DNA of 64,000 nucleotides, from the NCBI GenBank assembly GCA_027593235.1, contig JAQCIU010000001.1:27038-91037 (forward strand), given 5' to 3'. Positions 30,089 through 31,642 of this stretch are shown here, one piece after another (positions within the stretch are counted from its first letter, which is position 1; every line of letters starts with the position of its first letter). The translations under genes and the position numbers were made by a program. The stretch comes from Chloroflexota bacterium. Lineage in GTDB: Bacteria > Chloroflexota > Dehalococcoidia > UBA2979. Under the pieces are notes generated by a model that did not search any database, was not told the origin of the DNA, and saw only the letters and a program-made list of their open reading frames with translations.

Positions 30089-31606
30089 CTAGACTTCCAC
30101 TTCGTTCTCGTAGTACTCGATGCCGAGGTGGGTGATCTGCTCTTCGCCCATCAGGTAGCGCAGCGTGTTCTTCAGCTTGGTCTGCTGGATGAACAGGTCG
30201 TGCTCGGGGTAGAGGTCAGGCGCGTGCTGCGGGCTCTTGAAGTAGAACGAGAGCCACTCCTGGATGCCGCCCATCTTCGCCCGCCCGGCGAGGTCCATGA
30301 ACATCACCAGGTCGAGGACGATCGGCGCCGCGAGGATCGAGTCTCGGCAGAGGAAGTCGACCTTGATCTGCATCGGGTAGCCCATCCACCCGAACAGGTC
30401 GATGTTGTCCCAACCCTCTTTGTTGTCACCACGCGGCGGGTAATAGTTGATCCGCACCTTGTGGTAGAGGTTGCCGTACAGCTCCTTGTTCTGTTCCGGC
30501 TGCAGGATGTGCTCGAGCACGCCCAGCTTGGACTCTTCCTTCGTCTTGAAGCTCTCCGGGTCGTCCAACACCTCGCCGTCGCGGTTGCCGAGGATGTTGG
30601 TGCTGAACCAGCCGTTGAGGCCCAGCATGCGCGCCTTGAACATCGGCGCCAGCACCGTCTTGATCAGCGTCTGGCCAGTCTTGAAGTCCTTGCCGGCGAT
30701 CGGCACGCTTCGCTCCTGGGCCAGTTTCACCAGCGCCGGCGTGTCGCAGGTCAGGTTTGGCGAGCCGTTTGCGAACGGGACGTTCTCCATGATCGCCGCG
30801 TAGGCGTAGAGCATCGAGGGCGCGATCGCCTCGTCGTTGGCTTCCATCGCCGCCTCGAAGGCGTCGAGGGTCTGGTGGACCTCCGATATTTCCAGGAAGA
30901 TTTCCGTGCTCGCGGCCCAGACCATCACCAGCCGGTCGGCGCCTGAGGACGACTTGAAGTTCCGGATGTCTTCCCGGATCGACTCCGCCAGCTCGCGCTT
31001 GTTCTTGCCCTGCTTCACGTTCGTGCCATGCAGGCGCTTCACGTAGTTCTGGTCGAAGACGGCGGGCTGGGCCGGGATGCTCTTCAGGAAGTCCTTGATC
31101 GGCTCGATGTGTTCGTGCTTGTCGATCACGCCCGCGTTGAGGGCGGAGTCGTACGCGTCGTCCGGGATCGGGTCCCAGGCACAGAAGACGAGGTCATCGA
31201 TGGAGGCGAGCGGGACGAAGTCCTTGATCAGCGGGCTGCGGTGCTCCGTGCGCTTGCCCAGGCGGATCGTGCCCATCTGACTGACGGATCCGATGGGCGA
31301 GCTGATGCCCCGGCGTGCTCCTTCGACACCGGCGATGAAGGTGGTGGCGACGGCCCCGAGGCCGACCAGCATGACGCCGAGTTTTCCGTTGGCGGGTGCG
31401 ATGGTGCGAGTTGGTGTAGTCACGAAGTCCTTAGCCTCCAGGGAGATGTTTTGCCGCAGCGCCAGTTGGAGCAGGGTGTGATGCCATTGCGCCGGGATGA
31501 TGCCCGTCGCGGCCCAGTGCTGGACCGTGCTCTGACGTTTGTCGATCAGGGCGGCCAGCGCGGTCTGGCCTCCAAAGCGGGCGATGACGCGTTCTGCTGC
31601 GTTCAT
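30089..31606 (-). CDS. ino1: Inositol-3-phosphate synthase (MIPS) with an N-terminal Cro/YdaS-like HTH extension.
   Basis: The archaeal/bacterial-type MIPS core carries the motifs LGVMLVGLGAVATT, SMLYAYAAI..ANGSPNLT, GKDFKTGQTLIKTVLAPMF and STNILGNRDG. The first ~60 aa (VIARFGGQTALAALIDKRQSTVQHWAATGIIP) look like a P22 Cro/YdaS HTH. The start was chosen at ATG 31606. The listed ORF start at 31642 is a TTG inside a promoter-like TTGACA. Confidence 0.75.
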   Translation of the reverse strand: MNAAERVIARFGGQTALAALIDKRQSTVQHWAATGIIPAQWHHTLLQLALRQNISLEAKDFVTTPTRTIAPANGKLGVMLVGLGAVATTFIAGVEGARRGISSPIGSVSQMGTIRLGKRTEHRSPLIKDFVPLASIDDLVFCAWDPIPDDAYDSALNAGVIDKHEHIEPIKDFLKSIPAQPAVFDQNYVKRLHGTNVKQGKNKRELAESIREDIRNFKSSSGADRLVMVWAASTEIFLEISEVHQTLDAFEAAMEANDEAIAPSMLYAYAAIMENVPFANGSPNLTCDTPALVKLAQERSVPIAGKDFKTGQTLIKTVLAPMFKARMLGLNGWFSTNILGNRDGEVLDDPESFKTKEESKLGVLEHILQPEQNKELYGNLYHKVRINYYPPRGDNKEGWDNIDLFGWMGYPMQIKVDFLCRDSILAAPIVLDLVMFMDLAGRAKMGGIQEWLSFYFKSPQHAPDLYPEHDLFIQQTKLKNTLRYLMGEEQITHLGIEYYENEVEV

Positions 31607-31642
31607 GAGGCATAGATAACCAATAATTTTGGTAACTGTCAA
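31607..31642 (-). promoter_or_regulatory. Putative promoter with an operator palindrome in the spacer, upstream of the HTH-MIPS gene.
   Basis: On the minus strand the sequence reads TTGACA-N17-TTATCT. The spacer contains the inverted repeat ACCAA-N5-TTGGT. Only a few nucleotides separate this from the ATG, suggesting a short or absent leader. Confidence 0.4.

Follow-up and report, generated by a model that had tools for sequence, protein, structure and literature searches.

Can a metabolic enzyme carry, in the same polypeptide, the repressor of its own gene? This question is raised by a 64,000-nucleotide stretch of contig JAQCIU010000001.1 from a Chloroflexota bacterium (hereafter the window), on whose reverse strand a single open reading frame (ORF) encodes an inositol-3-phosphate synthase (MIPS) preceded by a Cro-type helix-turn-helix (HTH) domain, downstream of a promoter-like element with a palindrome in its spacer. 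This arrangement had been pointed out by an earlier, sequence-only reading of the locus, and we followed it up by comparison with homologous proteins and loci. We consider it likely, with a probability of roughly 0.7, that the product is an enzyme and, through its predicted DNA binding, the autorepressor of its own gene in one polypeptide. The features on which the argument draws are, in window coordinates and in the direction of the gene:

31637–31642, reverse strand: −35 hexamer TTGACA, read directly; relatives show an enrichment of T-T-G at this distance from the dyad

31618–31634, no strand assigned: candidate 17-bp dyad operator, TACCAA-AATTA-TTGGTT; no other site in the window comes within 1 mismatch of TAMCRR-N5-YYGKTA

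31614–31619, reverse strand: −10-like hexamer TTATCT, in relatives TAnnnT, whose TA also belongs to the right half-site of the dyad

31604–31606, reverse strand: ATG start codon, 13 nt past the start of the −10 hexamer, at the predicted transcription start

31439–31597, reverse strand: Cro-type HTH domain, residues 4–56 (NF046037, AlphaFold2 (AF2), Foldseek, and a sequence profile against the PDB)

31382–31438, reverse strand: linker, residues 57–75, with a conserved KDF, a variable stretch and I-x-P-A-x-G-K-L-G-V

30092–31381, reverse strand: MIPS core, residues 76–505 (PF07994, E 2e-97; PF01658, E 1e-34)

30089–30091, reverse strand: stop codon, after the core

30019–30057, reverse strand: terminator-like element, with a 13-bp G+C-rich hairpin and, after it, a U-rich run

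A Cro homologue joined to a MIPS core

The ORF as listed (30089–31642, reverse strand) is present, and its TTG start at 31642 is the first half of the TTGACA hexamer and thus spurious; the likely start is the ATG at 31606, which gives a product of 505 residues (ORF 30089–31606, reverse strand). Its translation contains the N-terminal string AERVIARFGGQTALAALIDKRQSTVQHWAATGIIPAQW and the MIPS signatures NGSPN, GKDFKTGQTLIKTVLAPMF, LGNRDG and FYFKSP that the sequence-only reading had quoted, with the correction that the signature given there as ILDLV reads VLDLV.

The N-terminal domain matches the NCBIfam model NF046037 (“carph-isopro” domain) with 63.2 bits against a cut-off of 38, over profile positions 1–53 of 54. 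Its AF2 model, computed from an alignment of 26 domains, has five helices (pLDDT 87), and the top PDB match found for this model by Foldseek is the Cro protein of Xfaso-1 (3bd1; probability 1.0, TM 0.71, 30–34% identity), with further Cro matches to the N15 Cro-DNA complex (6on0), to 2hin and to P22 Cro (1rzs). In line with this, a search of the sequence profile of the domain against the PDB with hmmsearch finds 3bd1 at an E-value of 2.4e-7, and the PHROG matches are families of DNA-binding proteins and repressors. The recognition helix, R-Q-S-T-x-x-H-W, is invariant among the fused proteins. As proposed from the sequence, the N-terminus is a Cro/YdaS-class HTH domain, a Cro homologue by sequence and predicted fold for which DNA binding is predicted.

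In the remainder of the protein, both Pfam domains of MIPS score above their gathering thresholds across their full length, NAD_binding_5 (PF07994) at residues 76–483 with 326.8 bits (threshold 25; profile positions 1–321 of 321) and Inos-1-P_synth (PF01658) at residues 311–423 with 119.2 bits (threshold 27). Residues 68–493 align with residues 24–447 of the MIPS BT_1526 from Bacteroides thetaiotaomicron (7NWR; E 1e-168), and the catalytic motifs KDFK(T/S)GQT, STNILGNRDG and CRDSILAAP are identical in the two. By these matches the encoded protein is a complete inositol-3-phosphate synthase, with a predicted activity, the conversion of glucose-6-phosphate to inositol-3-phosphate, and a predicted tetrameric state. 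It falls outside the actinobacterial, mycothiol-type Ino1 equivalog (TIGR03450), for which it scores 32.5 bits against a cut-off of 638. The I-x-P-A-x-G-K-L-G-V stretch of the linker is the point where unfused MIPS start, BT_1526 and the unfused enzymes of Gemmatimonadota aligning from about residues 66–69 of the query. An AF2 model of the full-length monomer reaches a pLDDT of 68 overall, with a poor catalytic half (residues 308–425) and values of 67–78 in the linker.

A 17-bp dyad upstream of the fused genes

The ACCAA-N5-TTGGT inverted repeat that had been described as a promoter-operator palindrome reads as claimed, at 31633–31619. Taken within the window alone it is not significant, at least one match being found in 27 of 100 shuffles, and its significance derives solely from its conservation across loci. 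When the upstream regions of 75 distinct fused loci are aligned, they reveal a symmetric 17-mer with the family consensus TAACGA-N5-TCGTTA (TAACGAAAATTTCGTTA), of which the window copy is a variant, with about 1.3–2 bits per half-site position, an A/T-rich centre and flanks of about 0 bits. Allowing for up to 2 mismatches, the dyad lies at most 120 nt upstream of the first codon of the domain in 85 of 88 fused loci; two of the remaining loci have it at −126 and one has a version with a 4-nt spacer. Of 77 unfused MIPS loci, on the other hand, only one has a dyad within 300 nt upstream of the core, and the exact pattern TAMCRR-N5-YYGKTA occurs 76 times in 488 kb of fused loci as compared to once in 864 kb of unfused loci. 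An invariant recognition helix (RQST..HW) is thereby matched by a near-invariant site, and we conclude from this comparison that the palindrome is very probably the operator of the fused HTH domain.

The form found in the window, TACCAA...TTGGT(T/A), is shared with its 91%-identical relatives. Hybrid sites in which a single arm is of the ACCAA type also occur in loci whose recognition helix is the standard one, and for this reason we regard such half-sites as tolerated variants and not as a sign of altered specificity. We looked for but did not find a simple co-variation between the protein (TGI/AAT in the clade of the window) and the operator (ACCAA half-sites), as proteins with the standard helix also go with TACCAA half-sites and TGI proteins also with TAACGA.

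Operator-like strings were also seen at other positions. In four low-GC relatives (L001:1580, L135:2317, L141:787 and L162:4699), a 17-mer, TACCGAAAAATTC(G/A)TTA, lies inside the MIPS ORF at +698 nt, where it encodes the T-E-K-F-V of a conserved ASTE motif. This match may be a coincidence of the coding sequence or serve as an auxiliary site. The codons for TNILG form a pseudo-palindrome, (G/C)ACCAACATTCTTGG(C/G)A, that resembles the ACCAA half-sites (e.g., L094:5002 and L035:5601) and is found at +1004 nt in fused and +776 nt in unfused loci, its occurrence in both kinds of gene alike indicating a coding constraint. A Dehalococcoidia genome has a second exact match to the dyad pattern, TACCGGCACGCCTGGTA, some 3.5 kb upstream of its fused MIPS gene (L166:4512 and L120:465). 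This match is probably due to chance, its centre being G+C-rich, unlike that of the putative operators.

The dyad within the promoter and a probably leaderless mRNA

The promoter-like element had been given as TTGACA-N17-TTATCT, and it does read in this way: TTGACA (31642–31637) is followed by a 17-nt spacer, TTATCT (31619–31614), 7 nt and the ATG at 31606. As a −10 hexamer, however, TTATCT is poor, and a scan for consensus promoters found no sigma-70-type site in the window. The promoter was instead derived from the alignment of the 75 distinct upstream regions, in which T-T-G is enriched at −8 to −6 from the dyad (72%, 47% and 61%), the TA of the −10 hexamer is 92–100% conserved, and the T at hexamer position 6 is conserved to 93%. 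The window carries a weak copy of this hexamer, in which T replaces A at position 2. The dyad fills the 17-nt spacer between the −35 and −10 hexamers, and its last TA opens the TAnnnT hexamer, so that dyad and −10 overlap.

In 59 of the 75 loci, the first in-frame ATG, GTG or TTG is found 12–14 nt past the start of the −10 hexamer. The start codon is thus located at the expected transcription start, with no room for a Shine-Dalgarno sequence, which suggests that the mRNA is leaderless. At the other end of the gene, the terminator-like hairpin and its U-run lie 32–70 nt past the stop codon, and the 78-nt stretch that contains the hairpin (30015–30092) folds at −47.9 kcal/mol (z −5.5), with none of 200 shuffles as stable.

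Some homologue gene calls (P0009, P0039, P0087 and P0108) carry 20–90 extra residues upstream of the domain. In L093, whose N-terminal domain sequence equals that of P0009, the extended frame crosses the operator, where AAACGAAAATTTCGTTAC translates as KRKFRY. Such upstream-extended calls of fused MIPS look like mis-annotations of the start codon.

A single origin of the fusion

The fusion of a transcription-factor domain to a metabolic enzyme had been expected to be an unusual architecture. It is not so in the sense of being rare, as it defines a large monophyletic family. In a homologue sample comprising the 120 best protein clusters (73–91% identity to the query), all 120 carry the motif RFGGQSALA..LG.RQST.QHWA.TGRIPAQWH and cover 98–100% of the query, except for one truncated cluster of 469 aa (92%). 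The few clusters that are named by organism come from Dehalococcoidia, Tepidiformaceae or Hyphomicrobiales. A homologue search by word index, in which the 75-aa N-terminal domain was the query, gave only 8 short fragments and was replaced by an exhaustive profile search and a metagenome scan. The latter, carried out with the domain alignment, confirmed 427 stretches, and in all of the 80 best of them the domain is fused to MIPS.

Of the 80 best genome matches to the whole protein, 77 are unfused, mostly from Gemmatimonadota and in part from Acidobacteriota, with cores that are 68–79% identical and start at residues 66–69; no N-terminal domain was found nearby in these 77 loci. When 126 distinct cores are placed in a neighbour-joining tree, all 49 of the fused ones group in one clade that is free of unfused cores, which indicates that the fusion arose once and has been kept ever since.

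The same HTH domain outside MIPS

The exhaustive profile search yielded 1,922 cluster representatives of the domain at E ≤ 1e-3. They include stand-alone proteins of 67–82 aa as well as fusions to 1) MEDS, 2) P63C, 3) RhuM, 4) IalB, 5) rhodanese, 6) an Apyc1-like metallo-β-lactamase (MBL) fold, and 7) DHBP synthase (RibB, of the riboflavin pathway). The stand-alone members and the MEDS, P63C, rhodanese, IalB, MBL and RibB fusions match NF046037 end to end, as does the N-terminal domain of the fused MIPS; the model itself names the domain only. In P0211 (406 aa) and P0236 (490 aa), the Cro-type domain is repeated 4–5 times in tandem, which is unusual for an HTH.

Among the MEDS fusions, for which the proteins P0148 and P0151 were examined, one with exactly the recognition helix of the MIPS fusions has an upstream TACCGG-ATATT-CTGGTA that overlaps a −10-like hexamer, TATCAT (L170:273–289), and another has an upstream AACCAA-AAAAA-CTGGTA (L171:2918–2934; L172:46–62). 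In the DHBP synthase fusion P0226 (L169:800–860), the recognition helix differs (RNQSAIAHW), and so does the palindrome, TTAGTTC-GATAG-GAACTAA, which is perfect, has an N5 centre and directly follows a TTGACG-N18-TATTAT promoter. Since MEDS fusions with the same HTH share the type of dyad, while the RibB fusion with another helix has another palindrome, the dyad tracks the HTH domain and not MIPS. The RibB fusion, which is one example, hints that an HTH tag together with its operator may be a general autoregulation cassette.

A model of negative autoregulation and its alternatives

In the mechanism that we propose, the locus would be a single-gene regulatory unit composed of a promoter, an operator, a probably leaderless ORF and a terminator. 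The MIPS oligomer would supply the dimer needed for DNA binding: two of its Cro-type HTH domains, each on a linker of about 15 residues, would pair and contact the 17-bp dyad, in which the centres of the TAMCRR half-sites are 11 bp apart. Located in the spacer between the −35 and −10 hexamers and sharing a TA with the latter, the bound dyad would block RNA polymerase, and the concentration of the enzyme would in this way feed back on its own synthesis. That the substrate, the product or the NAD state also tunes DNA binding, as in PutA or BirA, is a speculative addition to this model.

Several points weigh against it. The loci are phylogenetically related, and their counts are those of non-independent events. 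The dyad of the window is the most divergent one, with both half-sites of the ACCAA type, a right half-site that lacks the terminal A, and a poor −10 hexamer next to it. On the isolated 80 N-terminal residues the Pfam thresholds are missed, both for P22_Cro (PF14549; 19.6 against 30.2) and for YdaS_toxin (PF15943; 20.8 against 30), scores that are those of resemblance and not of formal Pfam membership. How the HTH domains pair cannot be read from the full-length AF2 model, whose catalytic half is poor, and both dyad binding and the transcription start are derived from sequence comparison. Finally, the scans for the dyad covered the 64-kb window and the stretches around the loci, and the genomes may hold further targets elsewhere.

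Even if the dyad is the operator of the HTH domain, the protein could activate its gene, or it could mainly control other genes and have its own promoter as one target. Some regulators, such as those of the MerR type, bind promoter spacers and activate, and other targets could be seen in the additional pattern matches at L166:4512 and at the intragenic +698 sites. The spacer, however, has the optimal length of 17 nt and not the 19–20 nt of the MerR type, and overlap with the −10 hexamer is the classical position for steric repression, which together favour repression over activation; the window has no second site within 1 mismatch, and the additional matches have G+C-rich spacers or a coding explanation. 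We therefore think this alternative unlikely. Quite improbable, in our view, is the involvement of a separately encoded regulator that binds the dyad, with the N-terminal domain serving in oligomerisation, protein-protein contacts or localisation. The stand-alone members of the domain family would provide candidates for such a regulator, and eukaryotic MIPS do stabilise their tetramer via an N-terminal extension, albeit an unrelated one (PMC9246714). Yet the dyad is absent from 76 of the 77 unfused MIPS loci and present upstream of MEDS fusions with the same HTH, the residues of the recognition helix are invariant, and there is no regulator gene among conserved neighbours.

An inverted repeat shortly upstream of a start codon may also bring to mind an RNA hairpin in the 5′ leader that acts, for instance, in translational control or attenuation. 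This we consider very improbable: the fold reaches only −3.1 kcal/mol (z +0.47) and has no Rfam match, the arms differ without compensation in many loci (e.g., TAACGA paired with TACCAA or TAACGG), and the dyad lies upstream of the predicted transcription start and would remain untranscribed. The sequence-only reading had itself named two outcomes that would speak against a fused regulator, namely that the first 75–80 residues are the normal N-terminal extension of eukaryote-type MIPS, which has 50–65 residues, or that a stop or frameshift lies between the two parts, as it would in a mis-assembled or mis-called ORF. Both are refuted, and we give them practically no chance. The eukaryotic MIPS 1jkf, 9m53 and 9f2k (from yeast and others) align from query residue 74 and 1vko from residue 98, leaving the region that is matched by the curated HTH model and by the Cro structures; the identical protein is found on 3 contigs, and the core continues in the same frame in all 85 domain-encoding loci, out of 88, in which downstream DNA is retained. 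Negative autoregulation by the fused Cro-type domain is thus the reading that we retain.

Composition and genomic neighbourhood

The gene had also been described as compositionally distinct, with a lower GC content and more A/T-ending codons than its neighbours. The first part holds, as its total GC is 0.628 compared to 0.683 in the window, but the second does not: the GC content at third codon positions (GC3) is 0.897 (0.923 in the core), against 0.86 ± 0.04 in the long genes of the window. As GC3 is not lowered, the deficit resides in the first and second codon positions and reflects amino-acid composition. A recent horizontal transfer, as the composition might have implied, is rejected based on GC3 and on the taxonomy of the neighbours. 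The best named relatives of the neighbouring aconitase are from Dehalococcoidia/Chloroflexota, by which the gene appears at home in this genome, and the closest relatives of the fused gene are likewise from Chloroflexota/Dehalococcoidia.

The TetR gene reported next to the fused gene is present (31735–32439, reverse strand); as a partner regulator it was rejected, since it is not conserved beside fused genes. What had been called a “decayed MMPL gene” is an ORF of 101 aa that BLASTP matches weakly to the N-terminus of an MMPL (E 5e-6) and that lacks a Pfam match; it is no conserved partner either. Across the fused loci we found no conserved neighbour genes, and hence no conserved neighbourhood that would assign the enzyme to a pathway; with neighbours that are not conserved, the unit appears autonomous.

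Two observations concern the neighbours themselves. At 32706–34367, the 101-aa ORF resembles the first ~80 residues of MMPL and is directly followed by an unrelated 451-aa ORF without a Pfam match, in which a signal peptide and repeated WSPDG/WSPEG motifs can be recognised by eye; the MMPL transporter gene appears to have been truncated or replaced. Between the TetR gene (reverse strand) and the divergent MMPL-like ORF, at 32561–32587, there is an inverted repeat with 10-bp arms, TACGGTGTA..TACACCGTA, which looks like a TetR operator and is classed as terminator-like by the scanner.

Relation to known systems and implications

PutA of E. coli and Salmonella, BirA and NadR are “trigger enzymes”, which act both as enzymes and as repressors. 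The fused MIPS resembles them in that an enzyme and a predicted DNA-binding domain, located at the N-terminus, form one polypeptide, and in that a dyad, which we take to be cognate, lies inside the promoter of its own gene (75 distinct loci) and is missing from the unfused loci in all but one case. It differs in its DNA-binding fold, which is an all-α HTH of the Cro type, as opposed to the ribbon-helix-helix of PutA and the winged HTH of BirA. It also differs from the PutA type in that the enzyme is MIPS, that the apparent sole target is its own single-gene unit and that a switch by an effector is speculative. In trigger enzymes of this kind, the DNA-binding domain is N-terminal and the operator belongs to a promoter of the same gene or pathway; the archaeal RbkR (PMC5397151) is counted among them.

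The Cro proteins of Xfaso-1, N15 and P22 have the same all-α, five-helix fold as the N-terminal domain, and Xfaso-1 Cro is also recognised by the sequence profile of the domain. A 17-bp dyad with an A/T-rich centre and half-sites 11 bp apart belongs to the size class of lambdoid operators. While Cro proteins are free dimers of about 60–70 aa that take part in the lysis-lysogeny decision of phages, the domain is here joined to a 430-aa enzyme encoded by a housekeeping-type gene. On the enzyme side, BT_1526 and the unfused MIPS of Gemmatimonadota and Acidobacteriota have the same catalytic core without the HTH domain and without the upstream dyad, and BT_1526 is encoded in a gene cluster for inositol lipids, while the fused genes have no conserved neighbours. 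As to dedicated transcriptional control of a MIPS gene, IpsA is a LacI-type regulator of ino1 in Corynebacterium and Mycobacterium. It resembles the proposed unit in this respect, but IpsA is encoded separately, belongs to another family and controls the actinobacterial type of Ino1, to which the enzyme of the window does not belong. In the paper on the structure of BT_1526, the eukaryotic extension is the only N-terminal part that is mentioned (Heaver et al., 2022; PMC9246714).

We found nothing on a Cro-MIPS fusion, on its operator or on the function of NF046037 in the literature, of which our coverage is incomplete. The NF046037 domain model, the annotation of the proteins as MIPS, and enzyme-repressor fusions as a kind are already known. 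What is new is the Cro-MIPS fusion with a matching putative operator. Its support from comparative data is good, its taxonomic range is broad and it can be tested directly, but its mechanism stays within an established paradigm. Few enzymes are at the same time their own transcription factor (PutA, BirA, NadR and RbkR), and MIPS would join them; NF046037, a curated, uncharacterised family that is fused to several other enzymes, would receive a first functional hypothesis. A compact unit of promoter, operator and HTH tag could also become a part for autoregulated expression in synthetic biology.

A bolder proposal, which we make tentatively and would not expect to hold as it stands, is that the carph-isopro domain and a spacer-embedded dyad form a portable autoregulation cassette, and that in MIPS the catalytic or ligand state of the tetramer gates DNA binding. 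If this is true, fusion to MIPS, DHBP synthase, rhodanese, MBL hydrolase or a MEDS sensor would confer self-feedback on the respective gene, often with a leaderless mRNA, and binding by the fused MIPS would be gated by NAD+/NADH, glucose-6-phosphate or inositol-3-phosphate. Chloroflexota, and within them the Dehalococcoidia, are abundant and mostly uncultivated, and almost nothing is known about their regulation; for this one gene, the sequence alone provides a candidate regulator, a precise 17-bp operator, a promoter geometry and a testable mechanism. Under the cassette proposal, one polypeptide would both sense and set the supply of inositol in many uncultivated Chloroflexota.

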